Of a DNA stretch of 64,000 nt, positions 14,504 through 62,652 are shown in pieces (positions within the stretch are counted from its first letter, which is position 1; each line of letters starts with the position of its first letter). The DNA is taken from NCBI GenBank assembly GCA_965217845.1, contig OZ244573.1:688806-752805 (forward strand). Direction: 5' to 3'. Both the position numbers and the translations under genes were made by a program. The stretch is from Chloroflexota bacterium (GTDB lineage Bacteria > Chloroflexota > UBA11872 > VXNJ01). The notes under the pieces were generated by a model. That model was given only the letters and a program-made list of their open reading frames with translations. It made no database searches and was not told the origin of the DNA.

Positions 14504-15745
14504 CTAGGCCCCGAATTTGACCAATCGCCCGGCCGTGGCCAGGAGCGTAGGCAGCACTGCGCGGGCCGGCATATGTCCTAACCCGCCACCGCTGCAGGCG
14601 CGTTCGCCGAAGCTCTCGACGCGATCGGGCAGGGCCTGCTCGCCGGCGATGAGCAGCGGCACCGGGTGCCAGGAGTGCTGGCGCAGCGCCGCCGGGGTCG
14701 AATGATCGCCGGTCACCGCGATCGCGGCCGGCCCCAGCTCCAGTAGTTGCGGCAGGCCGGCGTCCACTTCCTCGATCGCCTGCGACTTGGCCTCCCAGTC
14801 GCCGTCCTCGCCGGCGGCGTCAGAGGCCTTGTAGTGGAGGAAGAAGAAGTCGTAATCGGCCCAGGCTTGGGCAACCGCCCGCAGTTGGCCAGGGAACGTG
14901 TCTCCGGTATCGAGGATGTCCATTCCGGCGATCGCGGCCAGGCCCTTGTACATCGGGTAGGAGGCCGAACAGGCGCCCCGTACCCGCCAGGTTTCCTGCA
15001 GCGGAACCAGTCGTGGAGAGCTCGCATAGCCGCGCATGAGGACGAAATTGGCCGGCTGCAGCGCGCCGATCCGTTCCTTGACCACCTCCAGGAAACGGGC
15101 CAGCACCGCGGCGGTTTCGCTCGCGTCGGTGGTTAGTGCGTCCGGGGTCAGGGGGGGAACCCCGACCGACTGCGGGTCGGTTTCGCGGACCCTGTCGCTA
15201 AAGCCCGCCCCGCGCAGCACCAGGACCGCGCGGTGCGCGCTCTCGGTGGCCAGTTCATAGGGGCAGCCGATGTCGTGGCCGGAGAGTTCGGCCACCAGCT
15301 GGCGGTTGAGCTCGCTGGCAATCCGGCCGGCGCGGCGGTCGGCGACGGTGCCGTCGGCTTCCAGGGTGCAGAAGTTGAGGCGGACGCCCAAATCCCCCTC
15401 GCCCAGTCCCAGGCCGATGCCGATGGCCGAAAGGGCCCCGCGACCGATGTTGCTGGCGATCGGGTCGTAACCGAACAGGGCCAGATGCCCGGGCCCCGAT
15501 CCCGGCGTGATCCCGGGCCCGATCGGGACCGACAGGCCGGTGGCGGCATCCCGGGCCAGGGCATCGAGGTTGGGCGTGCGGGCGGCCTCGAGTTCGGTCA
15601 GGCCGGTCCGCTGATGGGCCAGCCCGCCCAGTCCGTCGATGACCAGCAGGATCAGCTTGCCGGGACCAGGACGGGCGAGCTGCTTATAGGTGTCGGCGGA
15701 AATCATCGCGGTACGCTGCGGGACGAATCTGCGGGGCGGGGGCAA
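14504..15745 (-). CDS. apgM: 2,3-bisphosphoglycerate-independent phosphoglycerate mutase, archaeal type (ApgM family)
   Basis: 413 aa with metal-ligand motifs of the ApgM/alkaline-phosphatase superfamily (ILLVIDGLGG, VTGDHSTP). An alternative start at Met-14 (15706) is possible. Confidence 0.8.
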   Translation of the reverse strand: MPPPRRFVPQRTAMISADTYKQLARPGPGKLILLVIDGLGGLAHQRTGLTELEAARTPNLDALARDAATGLSVPIGPGITPGSGPGHLALFGYDPIASNIGRGALSAIGIGLGLGEGDLGVRLNFCTLEADGTVADRRAGRIASELNRQLVAELSGHDIGCPYELATESAHRAVLVLRGAGFSDRVRETDPQSVGVPPLTPDALTTDASETAAVLARFLEVVKERIGALQPANFVLMRGYASSPRLVPLQETWRVRGACSASYPMYKGLAAIAGMDILDTGDTFPGQLRAVAQAWADYDFFFLHYKASDAAGEDGDWEAKSQAIEEVDAGLPQLLELGPAAIAVTGDHSTPAALRQHSWHPVPLLIAGEQALPDRVESFGERACSGGGLGHMPARAVLPTLLATAGRLVKFGA

Positions 15746-19323: not shown

Positions 19324-19374
19324 CTCCGCCATCCCTAGAATGGCTAGCAAATGACAACTTAATATCCGCAGGGG

Positions 19375-19464
19375 TGCTGAAAGCATCGGCTGAGAAGGAA
19401 AGCTGCAGAAGGGCTTTCCTCCCCTAATGACCTGATCCGGGTAATACCGGCGTAGGCAGACGGA
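19375..19464 (+). ncRNA. TPP (thiamine pyrophosphate) riboswitch
   Basis: Matches the THI-element core: GGGGUGC...CUGAGA (19381-19410), a variable P3, and ACCUGAUCCGGGUAAUACCGGCGUAGG (19429-19455). P1 is closed by uccg/cgga. Lies upstream of ykoF-thiXYZ. Confidence 0.8.
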
Positions 19465-19579
19465 ATCGACCGGAACTTTCGCACCGCACCGCGACATCGG
19501 TGCGGTGTTGGCCTTTCAAAAGGCAGCCTCCCCGCGCGAGAGCTATCGGTGCCCTGGCACCGGGGACGGGTTTCTGCAA

Positions 19580-19867
19580 ATGACGGCAATCATCGCAGCT
19601 TTCCAGGTGCTTCCGAGCGGAGTTGAAGACACTTACGGTTGCGTCGAGGCGGCGATCGCGGTCGTTCAGGAATCGGGGTTGCCCTACGACGTCTCCTCGT
19701 TCGAGACCACGGTCGAGGGCGAGTACGACGAACTGATGGACCTGATCAAGCGGGCCCAGCAGGCCTGCCTCGACTTCGGCGCCAGTTCGGTTCTCTGCAA
19801 CATCAAGGTGGCCAACACCCCGGCCGGCACCACCATCGTCGATCACATCGGCAAATTCCGCGATTGA
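19580..19867 (+). CDS. ykoF: YkoF/MTH1187-family thiamine-binding protein
   Basis: ATG at 19580 gives a ~95-aa DUF77/YkoF-like protein (MTAIIAAFQVLP...YDVSSFETTVEGEYDEL). The longer ORF from 19505 would overlap the riboswitch expression platform. Confidence 0.7.
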   Translation: MTAIIAAFQVLPSGVEDTYGCVEAAIAVVQESGLPYDVSSFETTVEGEYDELMDLIKRAQQACLDFGASSVLCNIKVANTPAGTTIVDHIGKFRD

Positions 19868-20631
19868 GCGAACAGTTCAAGGACCGACTCCGCACGGCCG
19901 CTCCGGCGGCCGGCCTGATCATATTCCTGCTCTGTTTCTGGCAGTTATTCGTCACCTGGCGCGAGGTTCCACGCTGGCTCCTGCCCTCGCCCCTGGCCAT
20001 CGCCCGGGCGTTCGTGGATTCGGCCGACCTGATCGCCCATCACACCCCGGTAACGCTGCTGGTGATGGCAATCGGCTTTGCGACCTCGCTGCTGGTAGGG
20101 ACCGTGGTGGCCACGGTCTGCCACCTGTTCTCTCCGGTGCGGCGGGCGGTCTACCCGCTCCTGGTCACCTCGCAGTCGGTCCCGTTCATCATCGTTGCCC
20201 CGCTGCTGGTGATCTGGTTCGGTTTCGGCCTGCTGCCGAAGCTGGTGCTGGTCACCCTGGTCTGCGCCTTTCCGATCACGGTCACGTTCCTGGAAGGCCT
20301 GCGGTCGGCCGACCACGAAGCCCTCGACCTGCTGCGTTCCATGGGGGCGGGCAAATGGGACCAGTTCCGCTTCGTGCAGCTCCCGCCGGCCCTGGCCGCC
20401 CTGGCGGCGGGCGCCAAGATAGCCGCCACCTACGCGGTGATCGGAGCCTTGATCGCCGAGTGGCTGGGAGCCAGCCGGGGCCTGGGAGTGTTCTTGATTC
20501 GCTCGATGAACTCGTTCCGCGCCGACCGCGCCCTGGCCGCGATCGTGATCGTGGTGGCCATCGCCCTTATAGCCTGGGCGGCGATCGAACTGCTCACCCG
20601 CTGGGCGATGCCCTGGCGAGCCCATCTATGA
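19864..20631 (+). CDS. thiX: ABC transporter permease, ThiX-like (HMP/thiamine-precursor uptake)
   Basis: Polytopic NitT/TauT-type permease with the EAA-like loop. TTG start at 19864 overlaps the ykoF stop (TTGA). The N-terminal part of track ORF 19639.. is a GC artefact in a different frame from ykoF. Confidence 0.8.
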   Translation: MSEQFKDRLRTAAPAAGLIIFLLCFWQLFVTWREVPRWLLPSPLAIARAFVDSADLIAHHTPVTLLVMAIGFATSLLVGTVVATVCHLFSPVRRAVYPLLVTSQSVPFIIVAPLLVIWFGFGLLPKLVLVTLVCAFPITVTFLEGLRSADHEALDLLRSMGAGKWDQFRFVQLPPALAALAAGAKIAATYAVIGALIAEWLGASRGLGVFLIRSMNSFRADRALAAIVIVVAIALIAWAAIELLTRWAMPWRAHL

Positions 20632-20692
20632 ACCGATCAAGAGTTCTCGCACGCAACCGATCCATCATGACCCCTGACCCGGAGGAATACCC

Positions 20693-21739
20693 ATGAACCG
20701 ACGAAGATTTCTGCGCCTGGGGCTGGCCGCCGGGGCCACCCTGGCGCTGGCCGCCTGTGATACCAGCGGCCAGGAAACGGCAGCATCCGAGGACATCGCC
20801 GACCTGCCGGCGGCGGTACCGGCGGCCAGCCCCCGGCGCGCCGACCGGGCCGAGGCGACGCTGGTTCTGGATTGGGTCCCCAACACCAACCACACCGGCC
20901 TCTACGTCGCCCGCGCGCTGGGCTACTTCGAGGAAGAGAACCTCGATTTCAAGATCGAGGAACCGGTGGAGGTAGACCCCACCGCAGTGGTGGCGGCGGG
21001 CAACGCCGAATTCGGGATCGGCTTCCAGGAATTCCTCACCCCGGCCCTGATCGAGGGTGCCCCGATCGTCTCGGTAGCCGCCATCATCCAGGAGAACACC
21101 TCCGGATTTGCTTCGCTCAAATCGCGCGGCATCACCCGCCCGCGGGATTTTGCGGGAGCCGTCTACGGCGGCTTCGGCTTGCCCCTGGAGGAGGCGATCC
21201 TGAAGGTCATGATGGAACAGGACGGCGGTGACTTCGAAACCCTCGAGATCGTCGGCGCCGGCGCGGCCGATTTTTTGACCATCATCCAACGCGATGTCGA
21301 CCTCTACTGGATTTTCTATGGCTGGCAGGGAGTAAAGGCCGAACTGGAGGGGATTGAACTGGAAGTCGCCTTCCTTGCCGACTGGGGAGTCCCCAACTAC
21401 TACACGCCGTTGATCATGGCCAACGCCGGCCTGCTGGGTCGGCGCCGCGACATCGGCGAACGGGCCATGGCGGCGATCGCCCGCGGCTACGAGTTCGCAA
21501 TCGCCAACCCGGCCGAAGCGGCCGAAATCCTGATCCAAGCCTCGCCCGAAATCGACGTGCCGTTGGCGCACGCCTCCCAGGTCTGGCTCTCACCGCACTA
21601 CCAGGGCGACGCCCCGCGCTGGGGGCGCCAGCAGGGTTCGGTCTGGGGCGACATGACCCAATGGATGTTGGACCAGGGACTGATCGAGTCGACGTTCGCA
21701 TGGGAGAACGCCTTCTCCAACGACCTCCTGCCCGAATAG
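20693..21739 (+). CDS. thiY: NMT1/THI5-like substrate-binding protein (ThiY-like) with Tat signal peptide
   Basis: 348 aa with twin-arginine signal (MNRRRFLRLGLAAGATLALAAC) and an NMT1/THI5 periplasmic binding fold. Lies between permease and ATPase genes. Confidence 0.85.
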   Translation: MNRRRFLRLGLAAGATLALAACDTSGQETAASEDIADLPAAVPAASPRRADRAEATLVLDWVPNTNHTGLYVARALGYFEEENLDFKIEEPVEVDPTAVVAAGNAEFGIGFQEFLTPALIEGAPIVSVAAIIQENTSGFASLKSRGITRPRDFAGAVYGGFGLPLEEAILKVMMEQDGGDFETLEIVGAGAADFLTIIQRDVDLYWIFYGWQGVKAELEGIELEVAFLADWGVPNYYTPLIMANAGLLGRRRDIGERAMAAIARGYEFAIANPAEAAEILIQASPEIDVPLAHASQVWLSPHYQGDAPRWGRQQGSVWGDMTQWMLDQGLIESTFAWENAFSNDLLPE

Positions 21740-21752
21740 CACCAATCAGCTA

Positions 21753-22529
21753 ATGGCCGGGCAGCTGGTCCTGGATGGGATCGAGAAGAACTTCGGCGAT
21801 GCGGGCGGACGCCTAAACGTCCTGGCTGGCGTCAGCCTCAGGGTCGATCCGGGCGAATTCGTCTGCCTGGTGGGGCCCAGCGGTTGCGGCAAGAGCACCC
21901 TTTTTAACGTCGCGGTTGGCCTTACCGATGCGGACTCCGGCCGGGTTTTCCTCGACGGGGTCGACATCACCGGCCGCCGCGGGCTGCTCGGATACATGCC
22001 GCAGCGCGACCTGCTGCTGCCCTGGCGCAGGGTGATCGACAACCTCGTCATCGGCGTCCAGGTGCGGCGCGGCGACCTGCCGGCGGGTCGCCGGCGGGCG
22101 CGCGAACTGGCGCCAATGTTCGGCCTTGAAGGGTTCCTCGCCCATCACCCACACCAGCTGTCCGGGGGGATGCGGCAGCGCGCGGCGCTGCTGCGGACGA
22201 TCGTGAGCGGAAACCAGACGCTGCTCCTGGACGAACCATTTGGGGCCCTGGACGCGCTGACTCGCCTGGATATGCACCGTTTCCTGCTCGGCGTCCGCTC
22301 GGAATTGGACCTGACGGTGTTATTCGTCACCCATGATCCGGACGAGGCGGTGGCCCTGGCCGATCGGGTCGCGGTCATGTCGCGGCGCCCGGGAAGGATC
22401 GCGGACGAGTTCGCGGTCGAATTGGGATTCCCGCGCGACGGCAATGACGCCGCCGCCGCCGCCCTGGCCGCCTACCGCGCCCGCCTGCTGGCAGCGCTCG
22501 GATCCGGGACCGCGCCGCCGAATCCGTGA
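21753..22529 (+). CDS. thiZ: ABC transporter ATP-binding protein (ThiZ-like)
   Basis: 258 aa with Walker A GPSGCGKST, signature LSGGMRQR and Walker B LLLDEPFGALD. Confidence 0.85.
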   Translation: MAGQLVLDGIEKNFGDAGGRLNVLAGVSLRVDPGEFVCLVGPSGCGKSTLFNVAVGLTDADSGRVFLDGVDITGRRGLLGYMPQRDLLLPWRRVIDNLVIGVQVRRGDLPAGRRRARELAPMFGLEGFLAHHPHQLSGGMRQRAALLRTIVSGNQTLLLDEPFGALDALTRLDMHRFLLGVRSELDLTVLFVTHDPDEAVALADRVAVMSRRPGRIADEFAVELGFPRDGNDAAAAALAAYRARLLAALGSGTAPPNP

Positions 22530-22594
22530 ACCCAAATCGCTCGGCCCTGGCGTTAGATTGAAAAACTATCCGCGCGATCCGGAACCTGGACCCG

Positions 22595-23842
22595 ATGCAA
22601 AGTTCGACCCGCCCCCGGCGCGTCGCTGAACCCACGGCTACGGCCCAGCGCATTCCCTGGACGGTCGTTCTGGCCGGAGCCGCGATGGCGTTCATTTTTA
22701 CCGGTTCGAACCAGTCGTTCGGGATTTTCCTGAAAGCGGTGACCAGCGATCTGGGCGTGGGCCGGGAGACGTTCGCGCTGGCGATAGCGGTGCTGCAGCT
22801 GGCAACCGGCATACCGGTCGCGGCCTACCTGGCCGACCGCTTCGGACACTGGAAGGTGATCGTCCCCTCGGCAGCGGTCTATTCGCTGGCGATGCTGCTC
22901 ACCTCGCAGGCCCAGTCTGGATTCCAATTCCTGGCCTACCTGGGTTTCCTGGGCGGAATTTCCGTCAGCGGGGCATCGATGACGGTGGTATTCGGCGCTG
23001 TCGGCCAACTGGTACCGGTGCGGCGTCGCAGTTTTGCCTTTGGCATCATCACCGCCGGTTCCTCGGCTGGCATGTTCGTGTTGGTTCCGGCCTGGCAGCA
23101 GATCCTGAACCTGGTCGGGTGGCGCACCAACTTCGCCCTGTTCGCGGTGGTGCCGCTGCTGATCGGCCTGCTGGCGGTGCTGTACCTGCGCGACACTCGC
23201 GGCCTGCCGCGCAGCGAGGACGTGATCGATGAGCCATTTGCGGACATGGTGGCCCGCGCCCGGCGCAACCGCGATTACCTCCTATTGACGGCCGGTTTCT
23301 TCGTCTGCGGGTTCCACGTGAGCTTTATAGCCACGCACCTGCCGGCGTACCTGTCGGATGGCGGGGTCTCCGCCACCGCGGCCGCCTTGTCATTGGCGCT
23401 GATCGGGTTGTTCAACATATTCGGGTCGGCGATCTGGGGGCGCCTTGGCGATCGCTACCGGCGCAGCCGGCTACTAACGCTTGTCTACTCCGCGCGCGGT
23501 TTCATATTGATCGCGCTCTTGGTCCTGCCCCTGACCGAGGTCACCGCGATGGCGTTTGGGGCCTCTATGGGATTCTTCTGGCTGGCGACGGTACCGCTCA
23601 CATCCTCGACAGTGGCCCAGCTGCTGGGTGCGCGCTACCTGGCGGTGATGTTTGGGACGACGTTTTTCTCCCATCAGATCGGGTCCTTTCTCGGCGTCTG
23701 GCTGGGCGGCCGCGTCTACGATGCCACCCAGTCATATGACCCGATCTGGGTGGCGGCCATCGTCCTGGCCTTTGCCTCGGCCCTGATTCACTTGCCGATC
23801 AGGGACCGGGGTCAGGTAATGGCTGCAGCCGCTGCGTACTAG
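22595..23842 (+). CDS. MFS transporter (oxalate/formate antiporter-like, 12 TM)
   Basis: 415 aa with 12 predicted TM helices and the MFS two-fold repeat. Confidence 0.75.
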   Translation: MQSSTRPRRVAEPTATAQRIPWTVVLAGAAMAFIFTGSNQSFGIFLKAVTSDLGVGRETFALAIAVLQLATGIPVAAYLADRFGHWKVIVPSAAVYSLAMLLTSQAQSGFQFLAYLGFLGGISVSGASMTVVFGAVGQLVPVRRRSFAFGIITAGSSAGMFVLVPAWQQILNLVGWRTNFALFAVVPLLIGLLAVLYLRDTRGLPRSEDVIDEPFADMVARARRNRDYLLLTAGFFVCGFHVSFIATHLPAYLSDGGVSATAAALSLALIGLFNIFGSAIWGRLGDRYRRSRLLTLVYSARGFILIALLVLPLTEVTAMAFGASMGFFWLATVPLTSSTVAQLLGARYLAVMFGTTFFSHQIGSFLGVWLGGRVYDATQSYDPIWVAAIVLAFASALIHLPIRDRGQVMAAAAAY

Positions 23843-37062: not shown

Positions 37063-38181
37063 ATGGAACCGTCACCACGCCTGCTGATTCCGGGACCGAT
37101 CGACCTGGACGAGCGTGTGCTGGCGGCCCTGTCCGAGCCGGTCATCCCGCACTACGGACCCGATTGGGTGCCGCTTTACCGGCGCCTCCAGGGGGGCGTG
37201 CGACCGCACGCCGGCACCACCGGAAACGTCTTCCTGCTGGCCGCCTCCGGCACCGGCGCACTGGATGCTGGAGTGCAATCGCTGACCGCCCGCGGCGACC
37301 GCGTGCTGGTCCCGGTGAGCGGCTACTTTTCGCAACGCTTCTACGAGATCGCCCTGGGCCACGGCTTGAATGTGCGCAGGCTGGATATCGAACCGGGCGC
37401 GGCGCCGACCCCCGATGCGATCGCCGCCGCGATCGATGCGCTTGAGATCAAGACCCTGCTGCTTTGCCACAACGAGACCTCCTGCGGGACGATTTGCGAC
37501 CTGGAGGCCATTTGCCGGGTATGCGGCGGCCGCGGTGTCAACATCCTGCTCGATGCCATCTCCTCGCTGGGCGCGGTCGATATCCGGATGGACGACTGGG
37601 GCATCGACTACGTGGCGGGAGCCTCGCAGAAAGCGCTCGAGGGCCCGCCCGGTCTGGCGCCAGCGATCATCTCGCCGCGCGGCTGGGAGACCTACGATCG
37701 CAACGCCGGCCGTTCCGCCGGCTGGTACTTTGATTTCGGCGTCTGGCGCGAGTTCGAACGCCTCCAAGCCGATTACCACCCGCAACCGGCTACGATGCCG
37801 GTCAACGTCGCCCGCGCCCTCGACGTTGCGATCTCGCTGCAGTCGGGCGAGAGCCGCGCCGAACGCTACCACCGGATCGCCGCCGGGGCCAGGGCGGTGC
37901 GATCGGGGCTGCGCGATCTTGGGTTCAAGATCCTGGCCCCCGAATCGATCGCCTCACCGACCGTGACCTGCGCCTACGTGCCAACCGAACTGGAAGGGCG
38001 GGTGGACGAACTGCTGGGGTGGATGCGCCAGGAGTGTGGATTCGTCCTGGCCGAAGGATTTGGGCCGCTGCGGGGCCGGATCATCCGCATCGGCCACATG
38101 TCGCGCCTGGTTTTTGAGAGTTACATCCCCGAGTTCCTCGGTGAGCTCGAGCGTTACCTGCGCCGCGCCCGGGCCGCCTGA
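37063..38181 (+). CDS. class V PLP-dependent aminotransferase (serine-pyruvate / alanine-glyoxylate or AEP transaminase-like)
   Basis: 372 aa. N-terminal LIPGPIDLDERVLAAL and a Lys-containing PLP region (SQKALEGPPG) are typical of AGT family I/class V enzymes. Confidence 0.85.
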   Translation: MEPSPRLLIPGPIDLDERVLAALSEPVIPHYGPDWVPLYRRLQGGVRPHAGTTGNVFLLAASGTGALDAGVQSLTARGDRVLVPVSGYFSQRFYEIALGHGLNVRRLDIEPGAAPTPDAIAAAIDALEIKTLLLCHNETSCGTICDLEAICRVCGGRGVNILLDAISSLGAVDIRMDDWGIDYVAGASQKALEGPPGLAPAIISPRGWETYDRNAGRSAGWYFDFGVWREFERLQADYHPQPATMPVNVARALDVAISLQSGESRAERYHRIAAGARAVRSGLRDLGFKILAPESIASPTVTCAYVPTELEGRVDELLGWMRQECGFVLAEGFGPLRGRIIRIGHMSRLVFESYIPEFLGELERYLRRARAA

Positions 38182-39400: not shown

Positions 39401-39527
39401 CTCTTATCCAGAGTGGTGGAGGGATTCGGCCCTTTGAAGCCCGGCAACCAGCGCGCTCGGTGACATGGTCCTTTAGAGCGTGGTCAGGTGCCAACTCCGG
39501 CGAGCTGCGAATTCGCAAGATAAGAGG
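39401..39527 (+). ncRNA. SAM-I riboswitch (S-box)
   Basis: Strong match to the S-box consensus: CUCUUAUCcAGAG-GGUGGAGGGA-GGCCC-UGAAGCCCGGCAACC...GGUGCCAA-UCC-GC...AGAUAAGAG, with P1 closed by 8 bp. It is preceded by TATAAT at 39366-39371 and followed by a ~225-nt leader containing a U6 tract (39571-39576). Confidence 0.8.
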
Positions 39528-39752
39528 ACACCACAACCATGTTCGATTCGGTAGAGATTTGCTTTTTTAGCCGCGGATACATGCCCGGCCCCCGCGACGG
39601 CGTACTCGGTCGCTCAAGCGGCGGACAGTCCCTGATGTAGAGCCCCGCGGCTTGGTGCGCCAACGGCCCTTCCGGCCCCGCGCACCGCAAGCCGCCTAAC
39701 CCCTCTGCAACCCCCTTACATCCATTCAGGACATCCCGAGAAATTAACTACC

Positions 39753-41006
39753 ATGGCCAATAAGGTACTTGGCCTCAAGTGCAAGAACTGTGCCGCGGTT
39801 TATCCGGCTGCCGCCCAGCATGTTTGCAATCTTTGCTTCGGACCACTTGAGGTCGTCTACGACTACGACGTCATCCGCGCCCGGATTAGCCGTGAGCGAA
39901 TCGCCGCCGGCCCCAACTCGCTTTGGCGCTATGCCGACCTGCTGCCCCTAGACAGCGGTTGGGAAAACAATGTGCGGGTCGGATTCACACCCCTGCAGCG
40001 CGCCGGCAAACTGGCCGACCGGCTGGGCTTGGGCGAACTCTGGCTCAAGAACGACAGCCTAAATCCCACCTTTTCCTTCAAGGATCGCCCGGTCACGGTG
40101 GCGCTGGCCAAGGCGCGCCAGCTGGGCTATGAGGTGTTCGCCTGCGCCTCGACCGGAAACCTGGCCTCGGCGGTCGCCGGCGCAGGAGCCCGCACCCCGC
40201 TGGACATCTACGTCTTTATGCCCTCGGATGTGGAGGCCGGCAAGGTCCTTAACGCCGCCGTGTACGGGGCCAATCTGATCGCCGTCGACGGCACCTACGA
40301 CCAGCTCAACCGGCTCTGCTCGGAGATCGCCGACGAGGAAGACTGGGCGTTCTGCAACATCAACATGCGGCCCTACTACGCCGAAGGGTCCAAGACCCTG
40401 GCCTTCGAGGTAGTCGAGCAGCTGGGCTGGCGGGCACCGGACCAGGTTGTGGTCCCAATCGCCTCCGGGGCCCTCTATACCGAAATTGCCAAGGGTTTCC
40501 GCGAACTGGTCGAAGTAGGCCTGCTGGCATCGCAGAACGTGGTCATCTCCGGCGCCCAGGCGGCCGGTTGCGCTCCGGTGGCCGACGCCTTTGCCAGCGG
40601 CGCGAGTGAGTTTGAGCCGGTCCGCAATCCGCGCACGCTGGCCAAGAGTCTGGCGATTGGCAATCCCGCCGATGGCAACTACTCGCTCGACGTCGCCCGC
40701 CGCACCGGTGGGGTGATTGAAAAAGTCAGCGACGCCGAGATCGTCGAGGCGATCAAGATCCTGGCCGCCGATGAGGGCATCTTTACCGAACCGGCCGGCG
40801 GGGTCACGGTGGCGACGCTGATCAAGCTGGCCGAGCGGGGCCAATTTGGCCGCGATGAGACGGTCGTGGCCTACATAACCGGCAACGGTCTCAAGACCCA
40901 GGAAGCGCTCGAAGGAATCGGCGTGGCCGATATGACCATAGCGCCAACGCTGGGGTCGTTTGAAGATGCCATCGCCGCCGCGGCAAACGCACCGGTGTTT
41001 GCCTGA
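39753..41006 (+). CDS. threonine synthase-like PLP enzyme with N-terminal zinc ribbon (MetM-like O-phosphohomoserine-dependent homocysteine synthase candidate)
   Basis: 417 aa with an N-terminal CxxC...CxxC ribbon and a fold-type II PLP Lys motif (FSFKDRP). It lies downstream of a SAM riboswitch and upstream of a MoaD-like GG protein. Confidence 0.75.
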   Translation: MANKVLGLKCKNCAAVYPAAAQHVCNLCFGPLEVVYDYDVIRARISRERIAAGPNSLWRYADLLPLDSGWENNVRVGFTPLQRAGKLADRLGLGELWLKNDSLNPTFSFKDRPVTVALAKARQLGYEVFACASTGNLASAVAGAGARTPLDIYVFMPSDVEAGKVLNAAVYGANLIAVDGTYDQLNRLCSEIADEEDWAFCNINMRPYYAEGSKTLAFEVVEQLGWRAPDQVVVPIASGALYTEIAKGFRELVEVGLLASQNVVISGAQAAGCAPVADAFASGASEFEPVRNPRTLAKSLAIGNPADGNYSLDVARRTGGVIEKVSDAEIVEAIKILAADEGIFTEPAGGVTVATLIKLAERGQFGRDETVVAYITGNGLKTQEALEGIGVADMTIAPTLGSFEDAIAAAANAPVFA

Positions 41007-41076
41007 GAATTTCTCATTGACAGCAATTCCCGATCTGACCCCAAACAAGACAGCAGCACCAAAGGAACAAGCCCAT

Positions 41077-41349
41077 ATGGCCACGGTGAGGATCCCGACC
41101 CCGCTGCGCGACCTGGTCGGCAACCAGCGCCGGATCGAGACCGACAGCGCCAGCGTGCGCGCGATGATCGACCAGATCGAATCGCAGCACCCCGGTTTCA
41201 AAGATCGCCTGCTGGGCTCCGACGGCGAGCTGTCGGCTTTCGTCCAGATATACGTCGGCGACGAGGACATCAGGTTCCTCTCCGGACTTGAGACCGAACT
41301 CGAATCCGGAACGCGGGTCTCGATCGTGCCGGCCGCGGCCGGCGGATGA
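41077..41349 (+). CDS. MoaD/ThiS-family sulfur carrier protein (C-terminal Gly-Gly; MetO/CysO-like)
   Basis: ATG 41077 gives 91 aa ending ...IVPAAAGG-stop, the beta-grasp sulfur carrier signature. The longer track ORF from 40960 overlaps the threonine-synthase-like gene. Confidence 0.75.
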   Translation: MATVRIPTPLRDLVGNQRRIETDSASVRAMIDQIESQHPGFKDRLLGSDGELSAFVQIYVGDEDIRFLSGLETELESGTRVSIVPAAAGG

Positions 41350-41922
41350 TTCAGACCGCCGCCCCGGTGGCGCTATGGCGGGCCGATCAGCGCAAGCCGG
41401 CCGAGTAGGCGGTTTCGCTCCGGCATTGTCAAGATTTGGGGCCTTCTTGACCGCGGAGCCGTCGGCATGCGGGCGCAAGACCCGATGGGGCTCGAATCGA
41501 TGATCCCGCGGGCGCTGGACCGGGGGCCCCGGTAATCATCGATGTGCCGATTTCGGAGACGCCGATTACGCGGGCCCATTTTCTGGCCTCGTTGCCCAAC
41601 CTGCCTGGGACGCACCCTCAGGATGGGTTGATCGCGCCCTAGGTTGGCCCGTGTCAACCCGGGCGATTGGTTAAATCGCAATCGGCACCGCGGCGCGTGC
41701 TTTCATCGCGTCCGCAGTTTTAGCGGCTCCGGGCGGGCTTTCGACTGTGCGGGCGCCGGCCTATTTACAACCGACCCGCCTCGGTCCGTCGCGCCCGCAG
41801 CCTACCTGGTCGGGTTTCTTGACAATGCGCGGCCTGCAGTTGGAGCGAGCGTGTCCCGACGGGTGATTGGATTGGAGATTCGAGCGGAGATCTAGCCAGG
41901 GGCGGGAAGAGCGGCAGCGTAT

Positions 41923-42200
41923 GTGATCGTGGAAGTCGAAATCACCAACCCCCAGCGATACGGCCAATTCATTGAGCGCGTAACGCCGACCGTCGCCGCC
42001 AAGGGCGGGCAACTTGTCGTCGGCGCGGGCGCGATCTCAAGGAAGTGGAGGGCGATTGGCATCCACCCCGGTTGGCGGTTGTGCAGTTTCCCCAAATGGC
42101 GCAGGTGCGGGCGTGGTTGGAATCACCCGAATTCCGGCAATTGGAACCACTTCGTAAGAGCTCTTCAAATCTCAATATCGTGGCTGTCGAAGGGGCCTGA
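41923..42200 (+). pseudogene. DUF1330-family protein, interrupted by a frameshift
   Basis: The N-terminus MIVEVEITNPQRYGQFIERVTPTVAAKGGQLVVGAGA matches DUF1330. The conserved continuation ...DLKEVEGDWHPPRLAVVQFPQMAQVRAWLESPEFRQLEPLRKSSSNLNIVAVEGA is in the +2 frame after the GC run at 42021-42036. Confidence 0.65.
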
Positions 42201-42430
42201 ACGCTAACTGGTGACAGGGCCAGTGCCGGACACGACGTGACCGGCGGCCGGCGCCGAATAGAACCCTTGGCCTATCCGCCGGCGGCAACGTCTGGCAGTG
42301 TCCCGGCTGGCCCGGATTCGGCAACAAGCGACAGTCACCCCCACGCCGGGAGCACGCGGGTGGGGCGGCGGCCTGGAGGGCGCTGATTTGGGGGCCGCGA
42401 GCTTCCTTCACGGCAACCCCTGTCCGAGCG

Positions 42431-60326: not shown

Positions 60327-60728
60327 TTATGGGCCCTCAGTTGCGATGAATTCACAACGTGGCCCGGCCGCCGCGGCCAATCTTTTATCTAGCGTGGCCA
60401 AGGGACAAGTCAGTGCCTCTGCCAAGGCAACGTACCATCCGTCGTAAACGCTCAGGTTGTGGCGTAAGTCCCAAATCCGCGCCGCAAACGGTTTGTAGGG
60501 GAAAAGATCAATTTCTAAGCGCATCAGTTCGCGGGAGACTGCTGCCGCAGTGAATTGGCGTAATTGACCGCTGAGTTCCAAGCGGCGAACGACATTTGAA
60601 GCTTCGGCCAGAACCAATTCGGGAGCCGCCAATCGGCCCTCCTGGAGAACGCCTCTAGCCCATCGTCCGGAAGACCCTCGGTTGACGAACGCGGTAGCCA
60701 ATAAGGACGCGTCGACGACCACCATCAT
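60327..60728 (-). CDS. vapC: PIN-domain toxin VapC
   Basis: 133 aa. The N-terminal MVVVDASLL carries the first PIN acidic residue, with further conserved acidic positions along the sequence. Its start overlaps the upstream antitoxin stop by 4 nt. Confidence 0.8.
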   Translation of the reverse strand: MMVVVDASLLATAFVNRGSSGRWARGVLQEGRLAAPELVLAEASNVVRRLELSGQLRQFTAAAVSRELMRLEIDLFPYKPFAARIWDLRHNLSVYDGWYVALAEALTCPLATLDKRLAAAAGPRCEFIATEGP

Positions 60729-60961
60729 CTGCGGTCGGCATCGACCGCGTCGAGTATCACCTGAACTGGTACGTCGCTCCGGTCCAACTCCTGGCGCCGC
60801 TCAACTTCTTCCATGAGCTCTTCGACCGTCGGCGTTGACGCGAGCTGGTCAAGGTGTTGCACCAGGAATTGCTGCATTGACTGTCCCCTGCGTGCTGCCC
60901 TAGCCGCCAATTTGTTGCGGGTCTTTTCCGGTACGTCGCGGATGGTAATTTGCACTGCCAT
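60725..60961 (-). CDS. vapB: VapB-type antitoxin (ribbon-helix-helix / FitA-like)
   Basis: 78 aa small DNA-binding N-terminus (MAVQITIRDVPEKTRNKLAARAARRG). Translationally coupled to vapC. Confidence 0.7.
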   Translation of the reverse strand: MAVQITIRDVPEKTRNKLAARAARRGQSMQQFLVQHLDQLASTPTVEELMEEVERRQELDRSDVPVQVILDAVDADRR

Positions 60962-61288
60962 GCCAGCATTGTATCAGCATTGCCATGATAATGATGGCGA
61001 CCGCTTCCGAGTGCAAGTCATTGCGGGTGTCGGCGATTCGCTGGGACGTTTGTACGGCGCGTGGGCCCGTGACGCCCTTCGACCCATGGCATGATCGTTG
61101 GTTCACTCGAGCATTGGCTGAGGTAGATCCGAACACGCATTCGGTCGGCGTGACTGGACATAACACGGATTATCGAAAGTGCCCGGGAAACATTGAATCT
61201 AGTTGCGCTGAGCACGACAATCTGCCGGCAATGCGATAGCCCAGTACTTCAAAAAACACAAAGTTCTTGAGCCCTAAGGAGCGAAAAC

Positions 61289-61546
61289 GTGCCGAAAATG
61301 ACGATTTCGAAGCTTTTTTCGATGTCTGATGAAGAAATCATCAAGATATTGGATCGACAACTCGAAACAACCCAACTATGGGTCGATACCTATTTGCCCG
61401 AACTTCATCACAGACAGCATGCAAGAATCGCAGACGAAGTTAGGAACCTCACACGCCGCATTTTCTGTCTCACAATTGCTGTTGCGGTGATCGCGGTCGT
61501 CACCGCAGTGGCGGCGGTAGCGACTCTCGCAACAACATGGGGCTAA
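61289..61546 (+). CDS. hypothetical small protein with C-terminal TM helix (low-GC ORF)
   Basis: 85 aa in a markedly AT-richer stretch (61260-61450), with a soluble N-terminus and the hydrophobic tail CLTIAVAVIAVVTAVAAVATLATTW. Confidence 0.35.
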   Translation: MPKMTISKLFSMSDEEIIKILDRQLETTQLWVDTYLPELHHRQHARIADEVRNLTRRIFCLTIAVAVIAVVTAVAAVATLATTWG

Positions 61547-61957
61547 GGTCGCTGCTGACTTGATACATCCGCCCGCGTGAGGGCGGCGATAACTGGCGGC
61601 TGTAGTCGGAGCAAGTCACCGAATTCAGCCAGGTGATGTGAAGGGGCGAGCAAGGCGATCAGTGAATTGGCCGATTCGGCCACCGCCAGCCGGGTGCCGG
61701 CGAACCCTGGCGAGAGCGAAACCAAGTTTTCGATCGACCATGCGACGTAGCGCACCCCGACAGTCCAAGGAACGGTTAAGTGCGTGGCCAAGGGCTACAG
61801 TGGCCGCATCTTCGATTTGGCCGCCCCCACATTGGTTTCAGGTGGAATTTGAATTATCTGGTTCCAACGAAAGGGCACTTCAGTGGCGAAAAGAAAGTAC
61901 TCGCCGGAACATTCAATTTAGCCGGCGCTCCGAGGACGGTCCCGCTGTGAATCCCTT

Positions 61958-62235
61958 TTGTGGCTTGACGAGTTCACGCGCGTGGTCATGGCCGCAAAGG
62001 CGGCCCGATCCTTCCTCGCCCGGAATGGGATCGAAGTCATAGGCGATGTCATGCTCATCCACGGGGTCCCGAAACATATCCGCTCCGACAACGGCCCCGA
62101 ATTCACCGCTAGAGAGGTTTGGAAATGGCTATCGGAATGTCACTTTAAGACCGTCTACATCAATCCCGGCGCACTCTGGGAGAACGCCTATGCGGAGTCG
62201 TTCAACTCCAGGGTCAGGGACGAGCTCTTAAAGCG
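61958..62235 (+). mobile_element. IS3-family (IS407-group) transposase OrfB remnant, internal rve fragment only
   Basis: Matches the integrase-core C-terminal region of IS3-family OrfB (DEFTRV...IRSDNGPEFTAREVWKWL...INPGALWENAYAESFNSRVRDELL). No match upstream of 61958, and all frames terminate after ~62235. No OrfA, TIRs or frameshift window are present. Confidence 0.7.
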
Positions 62236-62652
62236 TTACCCTCTGCAGGAAATCCTCTGCCGATTCCCGGGCTGCCTTCAGCTTGTCCGTGATGATCGGG
62301 ACGAGTGGGGAGCGGTCTTGCTCTGGGAGAAGCGCGCCAATTTCGTTTCCCGGTTTCACTGCCCCTTCCAGCACAAGCTCCAGTGGGAAATCTTCTCCTT
62401 GGGTCAGCAAATAGGTGCGGTAGAGTGAGCGAAGAGCGCCACCTTTTCTGGCGAAAAGATTGGCTGCGGTCCACAAGCCCCGCTGTTGGCGGCCGTTGAG
62501 TTTTGCCCACTGGCGGCAATCAGCCATGCCCGTGCATGGCAGTCAAAACTGCCCACCGGTGTGGGCAATCTTTCGTTGCCGCCCACAGCTGTGGTGACGA
62601 ATTCGCAACGCCAGATCAGCGTGCAGAGTGAAATCGGCTTGACGATAGTGAC

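Follow-up and report, generated by a model that had tools for sequence, protein, structure and literature searches.

We analysed a 64,000-nucleotide stretch of a Chloroflexota bacterium (contig OZ244573.1), referred to here as the window, in which two adjacent genes at 39753-41349 encode a homologue of threonine synthase (ThrC) and a small sulfur-carrier protein. An earlier note on this DNA had proposed that the pair is controlled by an S-adenosylmethionine (SAM) riboswitch and makes homocysteine from O-phosphohomoserine, with a protein thiocarboxylate as sulfur donor, by the route of the MetM and MetO proteins. The features of the locus are listed below, where ORF denotes open reading frame, PLP denotes pyridoxal 5'-phosphate and SD denotes a Shine-Dalgarno sequence.

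39401-39526, + strand: SAM-I (S-box) riboswitch aptamer (Rfam RF00162), P1 strands at 39401-39408 and 39519-39526.
39539-39640, + strand: candidate leader ORF of 33 codons, MFDSVEICFFSRGYMPGPRDGVLGRSSGGQSLM and a stop codon, tentative; putative SD AAGAGGA at 39522-39528.
39647-39695, + strand: GC-rich inverted repeat, GCGGCTTGGTGCGC ... GCGCACCGCAAGCCGC, read from the sequence; tentative regulatory hairpin.
39753-41006, + strand: metM-type gene for a ThrC-family fold-type II PLP enzyme of 417 amino acids, a predicted O-phosphohomoserine-dependent homocysteine synthase, assigned from the PALP domain, orthology and a tree.
39780-39836, + strand: N-terminal zinc-ribbon-like module C10-x2-C13-x11-C25-x2-C28, read from the translation.
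40080-40082, + strand: codon of the PLP-binding lysine K110, motif NPTFSFKDRP, from alignment with ThrCs.
41077-41349, + strand: metO-type gene for a carrier of 90 amino acids with the ThiS/MoaD fold; Gly-Gly codons at 41341-41346, stop codon at 41347-41349.

The two genes are co-directional, with the ATG of metO (41077) lying 70 nucleotides past the stop codon of metM. The aptamer lies outside the 39753-41349 interval on the same strand, and it matches RF00162 over the full length of the model (positions 1-108) with 73.1 bits (gathering score 44.4, E=3e-15), which confirms the riboswitch that the earlier note had named. Its description of the enzyme as ThrC-like was also borne out, by a full-length PALP domain (Pfam, E=4e-73) and by a score of 280 bits with the thrC equivalog TIGR00260 (cutoff 167). 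Lysine K110 in the SFKDR motif occupies an invariant column in the alignment with ThrCs and aligns to the PLP-lysine motif of the solved threonine synthases (PDB 2zsj, 6cgq, 1uim and 2d1f), to which the enzyme is 35-40% identical over residues 55-400. The more specific model PRK08197 scores 283 bits, under its cutoff of 303, and all other ThrC equivalog models are under their cutoffs as well; the cysteate synthase model (TIGR03844) gives 71 bits against a cutoff of 325. The carrier belongs to the ThiS family (Pfam, E=1.9e-12) and is 45% identical to the MetO-type proteins of Streptomyces. Its best PDB matches are of the CysO type, namely 4n6e_B (E=4e-20) and CysO of Mycobacterium tuberculosis (3dwg_C, E=4.5e-17), and it scores under the cutoffs of the MoaD model TIGR01687 (42.2 vs 49.5) and of the SAMP1 model. 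Its C-terminus reads ...VPAAAGG, in agreement with the AAGG ending given earlier, although the protein has 90 amino acids and not 91. The enzyme, ribbon, carrier and riboswitch that had been described are all present, and a chance match is excluded.

The same arrangement is found in actinomycetes. A locus of Nonomuraea gerenzanensis, found by tblastn of plasmid records in a record of 11.85 Mb (50.5% identity), combines a SAM riboswitch with a ThrC-like gene bearing CRECGARYPLGPSFACQEC and with a carrier of 91 amino acids that ends in AVAGG. A genome scan with the Nonomuraea protein as query, restricted to one genome per species, then gave 80 loci (42 Streptomyces, 9 Kitasatospora, 1 Streptantibioticus, 2 Actinocrinis and 26 Streptosporangiales), which with the Nonomuraea locus make 81 actinomycete loci. 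A MetO-like gene follows directly downstream of the ribbon-bearing enzyme in all 81, the 42 Streptomyces species among them, and a riboswitch was found upstream in each of the ten actinomycete loci tested. Close Chloroflexota relatives (59-94% identity) retain the riboswitch, the enzyme and the carrier; the named homologues of the window enzyme are from Chloroflexota metagenome-assembled genomes.

The window enzyme shares 49-53% identity with the riboswitch-linked orthologues of Streptomyces, Kitasatospora and Nonomuraea, and 28-36% with the four ThrC-type proteins that served as outgroup (ThrC of Microbacterium from a hom-thrC operon, ThrC of Haloterrigena, ThrC of Candidatus Chlorohelix, and a paralogue from environmental locus L089). 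In a neighbour-joining tree, the 18 sampled carrier-linked enzymes were separated from these four proteins by one split in 100% of 300 bootstraps, and the window enzyme falls within this clade and not with the threonine synthases. Without exception, the 120 close homologues and the 80 JGI metagenome loci (L095-L174) carry the motif STGNL, at a position where the compared ThrCs have STGNT, STGNA or SAGNA. In public records, six Streptomyces clusters (90% identity) with more than 5,000 members of the riboswitch-linked enzyme are uniformly named 'threonine synthase' in NCBI, UniRef and JGI. Two proteins of 92 amino acids named 'MoaD/ThiS family' are among the listed members of cluster 5, apparently through a quirk of the clustering.

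The association also holds in a broader set of 87 environmental loci. Three of these are cut off; of the 84 that could be tested, 77 (about 92%) have a gene for a MetO homologue downstream of the enzyme gene and on its strand. With a covariance model built from 13 aptamers, SAM-I was found upstream in 31 of 81 environmental loci, and no known SAM riboswitch of any class was found in 20 of the SAM-I-negative ones. At one of them, locus L139, a T-box leader (2015-2374, 93.1 bits) takes the place of the SAM riboswitch at the MetM-like gene. Its specifier position reads AUG (Met), as judged by alignment reading, and the next base is C rather than the usual purine; this T-box would be an independent link of the enzyme to methionine. 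Locus L091 (7556-14418, 59% identity) is a near-complete sulfur-carrier and methionine neighbourhood, in which the pair is flanked by genes for a LarE-like sulfur transferase, a JAMM protein, an E1 enzyme that is a ThiS-MoeB fusion, CysK, an Rrf2 regulator and methylenetetrahydrofolate reductase.

MetM and MetO of Streptomyces albulus have reportedly been characterised, by Hasebe et al. in 2024 (Appl Environ Microbiol 90:e01247-24). As summarised in GapMind 2026 (bioRxiv 10.1101/2024.10.14.618325), S. albulus converts O-phosphohomoserine to homocysteine with MetO as carrier, MoeZ as ligase, Mec as hydrolase and MetM as synthase, and MetM is commonly misannotated as threonine synthase; a 2026 preprint gives the same summary of the thiocarboxylate route. 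Another source (PMC12172450) places a SAM riboswitch upstream of S. albulus metM and homologues in cyanobacteria. The match to this route that the earlier note had drawn is upheld, the module being shared with 42 Streptomyces species. We consider it probable, at roughly 85%, that the two genes form an operon whose products make homocysteine by the MetM/MetO route and whose expression is repressed by SAM, with function assigned by homology.

The steps that follow are modelled on the published pathway and on the chemistry of the CysO/CysM and HcyS systems. An E1-like adenylyltransferase/sulfurtransferase of the MoeZ type, encoded elsewhere, would adenylate the C-terminal glycine of the carrier and convert it to a thiocarboxylate. 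The PLP enzyme would remove phosphate from O-phospho-L-homoserine by elimination, and the carrier thiocarboxylate would attack the gamma carbon. Homocysteine would then be freed from the carrier, possibly with the aid of a JAMM/Mec-type hydrolase, and methylated to methionine. At high SAM the P1 helix of the riboswitch would close and the operon would be turned off.

Several findings weigh against homocysteine synthesis by this route and have to be set beside the evidence above. The search of the window covered about 60 ORFs, which were compared with Pfam and NCBIfam, together with tblastn using an E1 (the ThiS-MoeB fusion), a JAMM protein, CysK and three ThrC-type queries. Neither the domain scans nor tblastn found a ThiF/MoeB/MoeZ adenylation domain or a JAMM protease in the 64 kb. 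The earlier note had seen no E1-like or JAMM gene nearby and had concluded that carrier activation must be supplied in trans; the first statement holds across the entire window, and the second is correct for it. In 7 of the 84 testable environmental loci no carrier gene was found within the available sequence. The link to the characterised MetM and MetO runs through congeneric Streptomyces loci (42 species). Finally, a residual or dual threonine synthase activity of the metM-type enzyme is conceivable because TIGR00260 exceeds its cutoff, and a cyanobacterial MetM homologue is reported to act as a ThrC/deaminase in vitro (PMC12172450).

The first two of these findings also bear on the alternative that survives best, in which a MetM-type homocysteine synthase takes free sulfide as its sulfur source in vivo and the carrier can be dispensed with or supplies a different acceptor, for instance in cysteine synthesis or thiolation. 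The missing E1 and JAMM genes and the seven environmental homologues without a nearby carrier gene would suit it, and PLP sulfhydrylases often take sulfide in vitro. However, the carrier gene is directly downstream, on the same strand and under the same riboswitch, in about 92% of the testable environmental loci and in all of the actinomycete loci, and E1 and JAMM genes flank the pair in one relative (L091). We therefore regard the use of free sulfide as improbable.

An ordinary threonine synthase next to a MoaD for molybdopterin, with the adjacency being incidental, is less probable still. The TIGR00260 score, the public records that call thousands of orthologues 'threonine synthase', and the missing second ThrC (neither a second ThrC nor a CysK/M gene was found in the window by domain scans and tblastn) would all favour it. 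Against it, the operon has a SAM riboswitch and not a threonine signal, the specific model PRK08197 is under its cutoff, and the enzyme groups with the carrier-linked proteins in every bootstrap at only 28-36% identity to annotated ThrCs. The adjacency of enzyme and carrier is kept across phyla. For the carrier, CysO-type proteins are better matches than MoaD, the MoaD and SAMP models are under cutoff, and neither moaE nor other molybdopterin genes were found in the window by the Pfam/NCBIfam scans. Furthermore, at least one genome with the pair has a second ThrC-like paralogue beside it. This paralogue, in L089 (9567-10703, - strand), is a ribbon-bearing protein of 378 amino acids (PRK08197, 263 bits) whose gene is tail-to-tail with metO, and its position beside the pair means that genomes can hold both a MetM-type enzyme and another ThrC-type enzyme. 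It is equally hard to credit that the pair makes some other sulfur product under SAM control, by a cysteate-synthase-like or other beta- or gamma-replacement: the ThrC family does include cysteate synthase, other members carry the ribbon (TIGR03844 aligns from residue 8) and direct biochemistry for the clade is confined to Streptomyces, but the cysteate synthase score is far under its cutoff, Streptomyces orthologues of the characterised system belong to the same clade, and the SAM riboswitch and the one AUG-specifier T-box point to methionine.

Among the features of the MetM/MetO pair, the zinc ribbon had been given particular weight in the earlier note. It is formed by C10, C13, C25 and C28 (KCKNCAAVYPAAAQHVCNLCFGPLE), and residues 10-28 read C-KN-C-AAVYPAAAQHV-C-NL-C. 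The N-terminal ribbon is thus present as described, but with the spacing CxxC-x11-CxxC and not CxxC-x-CxxC. The statement that it is not a feature of the characterised MetM is not supported: all 84 fetched loci have the ribbon, at a constant distance from the PLP lysine, and it occurs in 72 of the 73 full-length members of the six Streptomyces 90% clusters, the exception being a gene call whose start lies within the ribbon. From the 42 congeneric species we infer that S. albulus MetM itself has it. Among the 120 close homologues, 85 have the ribbon; the other 35 comprise 34 with Cys-Cys-Cys-Asp and one N-terminally truncated gene call. The 34 sequences form a subclade (P0047-P0094) in which the fourth ribbon cysteine is replaced by aspartate (CRECxRTYPLxxxHICEFDFGPLE), and its sampled representative (P0054, locus L094, 8001-9257) is from a TARA ocean metagenome.

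The ribbon is also found in ThrC-type proteins without a nearby carrier gene, namely those of Chlorohelix (CTYC...CPAC) and the L089 paralogue (CSEC...CPRC), and the ThrC of Haloterrigena has a degenerate one. The alignments of the window enzyme with the NCBIfam models of archaeal threonine synthase and cysteate synthase begin at its residue 8, and the solved ThrC structures are without a ribbon. Judged from this distribution, the ribbon is an ancestral module of a ThrC subfamily and is neither new nor specific to carrier-using enzymes, so that it does not set the window enzyme apart. The evidence also speaks against the suggestion that it docks the carrier; it is most likely structural.

The carriers differ at their C-termini. 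The window carrier and those of its close relatives stop exactly at Gly-Gly, and because of this the window carrier would need no proteolytic trimming before activation. Many environmental MetO-type carriers run beyond Gly-Gly with C, R, SK, A or longer tails, as do some of the actinomycete ones (GGC, GGQ and GGAR); the loci in question are L028-L081 and L088-L174. Carriers with such tails would need a JAMM/Mec hydrolase before activation, in line with the requirement for a Mec-type hydrolase that has been reported.

At 226 nucleotides, the spacer that separates metM from the aptamer (39527-39752) is unusually long. In actinomycetes, the SD (GAUGAGGAG) lies inside the 3' strand of P1 and the metM ATG is 14-19 nucleotides past the aptamer, an arrangement that, as read from the sequences, is a direct translational switch. 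Relatives of 59-72% identity have a clear intrinsic terminator after the aptamer, and their metM genes begin about 120-220 nucleotides past the aptamer. No intrinsic terminator was found on the + strand after the window aptamer, and none is detectable in its three closest relatives, L092, L082 and L093, either. A terminator-type platform in the window lineage was considered and rejected, with local folds no better than shuffles (z from -0.35 to +1.2), and an Rfam E-value scan found no second known RNA in the spacer.

In the window and in L092, L082 and L093, the leader ORF has its ATG at +13/+15 past the aptamer (39539 in the window), and in the window its putative SD overlaps the 3' strand of P1. 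The ORF is 102 nucleotides long in all four sequences and ends in ...S/H-GGQ-xx-M-stop (GGQSLM-stop in the window), with a middle part that is about 50% diverged. Substitutions in the ORF fall evenly on the three codon positions, with no bias, and the probability of a stop-free frame by chance is about 0.45-0.55 per lineage. Its conservation lies in the start, the length and the C-terminal end, and is suggestive. The inverted repeat begins 7 nucleotides past the leader stop codon, has no U-tract and gives a weak RNAalifold signal; metM starts 113 nucleotides past the same stop codon. Mini-ORFs of the form GG-xxx-M-stop are also present in L090, L175 and L099, with GC hairpins after them, and a conserved MMAMPGPD leader is present in four other loci; in these related lineages the methionine-containing mini-ORFs and the MMAMPGPD leader sit between the S-box terminator and metM. 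A pairing of the end of the leader ORF with a conserved UUCAGGAC block upstream of metM was examined with RNAalifold and discarded, since true covariation is absent and the pairs are broken in one of the four sequences. We regard it as doubtful, though possible, that in the window lineage the riboswitch gates the 33-codon leader ORF rather than metM directly. If it does, the leader would combine SAM sensing with translation-dependent control, either by sensing of Met-tRNA or by unmasking of metM that depends on the upstream ORF (uORF). This leader architecture is the only element of the locus that might be new, and we put it forward as a candidate.

Outside the operon, the Pfam/NCBIfam scans found no MetX, MetY or MetB candidates in the window. 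A class-V aminotransferase gene (37063-38181) was considered as a part of the system and rejected, since it is syntenic only in close relatives and an opposite-strand gene with tetratricopeptide repeats lies between. An apgM-type gene annotated as 'cofactor-independent phosphoglycerate mutase' lies at 14504-15745 on the - strand (PRK04135, 503 bits; TIGR00306, 330 bits). A TIGR00306-type protein of Dehalococcoides mccartyi, also of the Chloroflexota, was reportedly shown recently to be a homoserine phosphotransferase (HomK); by analogy, the window gene might supply the substrate O-phosphohomoserine as a HomK-type enzyme. In the alignment of its product with 2zkt, the histidine of DAAGH, taken as a metal ligand, is glutamate (DAAGE), and the HomK specificity residue (BT2402 numbering) could not be mapped onto this alignment.

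Downstream of metO, the interval 41350-42430 comprises only about 1 kb with a 94-amino-acid ORF whose first 38 residues match DUF1330. In the 94%-identical relative L092 (11596-14117), genes for a thiamine pyrophosphate (TPP)-dependent enzyme of 562 amino acids and an intact DUF1330 protein of 98 amino acids lie between metO and a Cache-domain gene; the comparison suggests deletion or decay in the window. An ordinary thiamine salvage and transport locus at 19360-23842 consists of a TPP riboswitch (RF00059, 66 bits) followed by genes for a thiamine-binding protein, an ABC (ATP-binding cassette) permease, an NMT1/THI5-like binding protein and an ATPase, with a thiamin pyrophosphokinase gene just upstream of the riboswitch. 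Near the end of the window, at 60725-62428, a FitA-like antitoxin ORF and a truncated rve integrase ORF have a weaker codon-position GC bias than is found elsewhere in the window, and are probably a degraded mobile element.

With this assignment, a gene that nearly always goes by the name 'threonine synthase' in databases would receive a function, and the MetM/MetO route of 2024 would be extended to the Chloroflexota by means of the riboswitch, the linked carrier and the phylogeny. For reconstructions of uncultured Chloroflexota, it implies that 'missing' metX, metY or metB may not mean methionine auxotrophy.

Compared with known systems, the tentative leader ORF has a possible parallel in M. 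tuberculosis, where metE and ppe2 have translated leader ORFs under the control of B12 riboswitches, with experimental support, and translation of the ppe2 leader is needed for downstream expression (PMC11260477). In both cases a riboswitch would gate a short uORF whose translation modulates the downstream gene, but the M. tuberculosis leaders belong to B12 riboswitches, whereas the SAM-I/uORF arrangement proposed here is drawn from four sequences. Canonical ThrCs share with the window enzyme the fold, the PLP-lysine motif and presumably the substrate O-phosphohomoserine. They differ in having NPTGSFKDRG and STGNT/A where the window enzyme has NPTFSFKDRP and STGNL, and, unlike it, they are not linked to a carrier or to a SAM riboswitch.

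In the HcyS/HcyF/HcyD/MetY pathway of Wolinella succinogenes, a ThiS-like thiocarboxylate delivers the sulfur of homocysteine, and the pathway includes an E1 enzyme and a JAMM hydrolase. It differs in using MetY (Cys_Met_Meta_PP fold) and O-acetylhomoserine; no such enzyme was found in the 64-kb window. The CysM/CysO/Mec/MoeZ system of M. tuberculosis (3dwg) resembles the window pair in its protein-thiocarboxylate donor, phosphorylated amino-acid substrate and PLP enzyme. Its enzyme, however, is a CysK/CysM-family protein that carries out beta-replacement on O-phosphoserine, whereas the window enzyme is of the ThrC family and presumably acts on O-phosphohomoserine by gamma-replacement.

The closest likeness is to MetM/MetO of S. 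albulus, which has a ThrC-homologous PLP enzyme followed by a carrier of the ThiS fold, an upstream SAM riboswitch and an E1 enzyme (MoeZ) supplied in trans, as the window pair would also need; the ribbon and the membership of the same clade are seen via the 42 congeneric species. The window locus differs from those of Streptomyces in its Chloroflexota origin, with an identity of about 50%, and in its carrier, which has GG as its last two residues; many actinomycete MetO proteins have GGC or a similar ending and would need to be trimmed. It also differs in its leader, with metM 226 nucleotides downstream of the aptamer and the 33-codon ORF at the position equivalent to the actinomycete metM start, 14-19 nucleotides past the aptamer. 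The locus is a probable Chloroflexota member of the system described in 2024, which is already included in an annotation tool, and it is no new kind of system.

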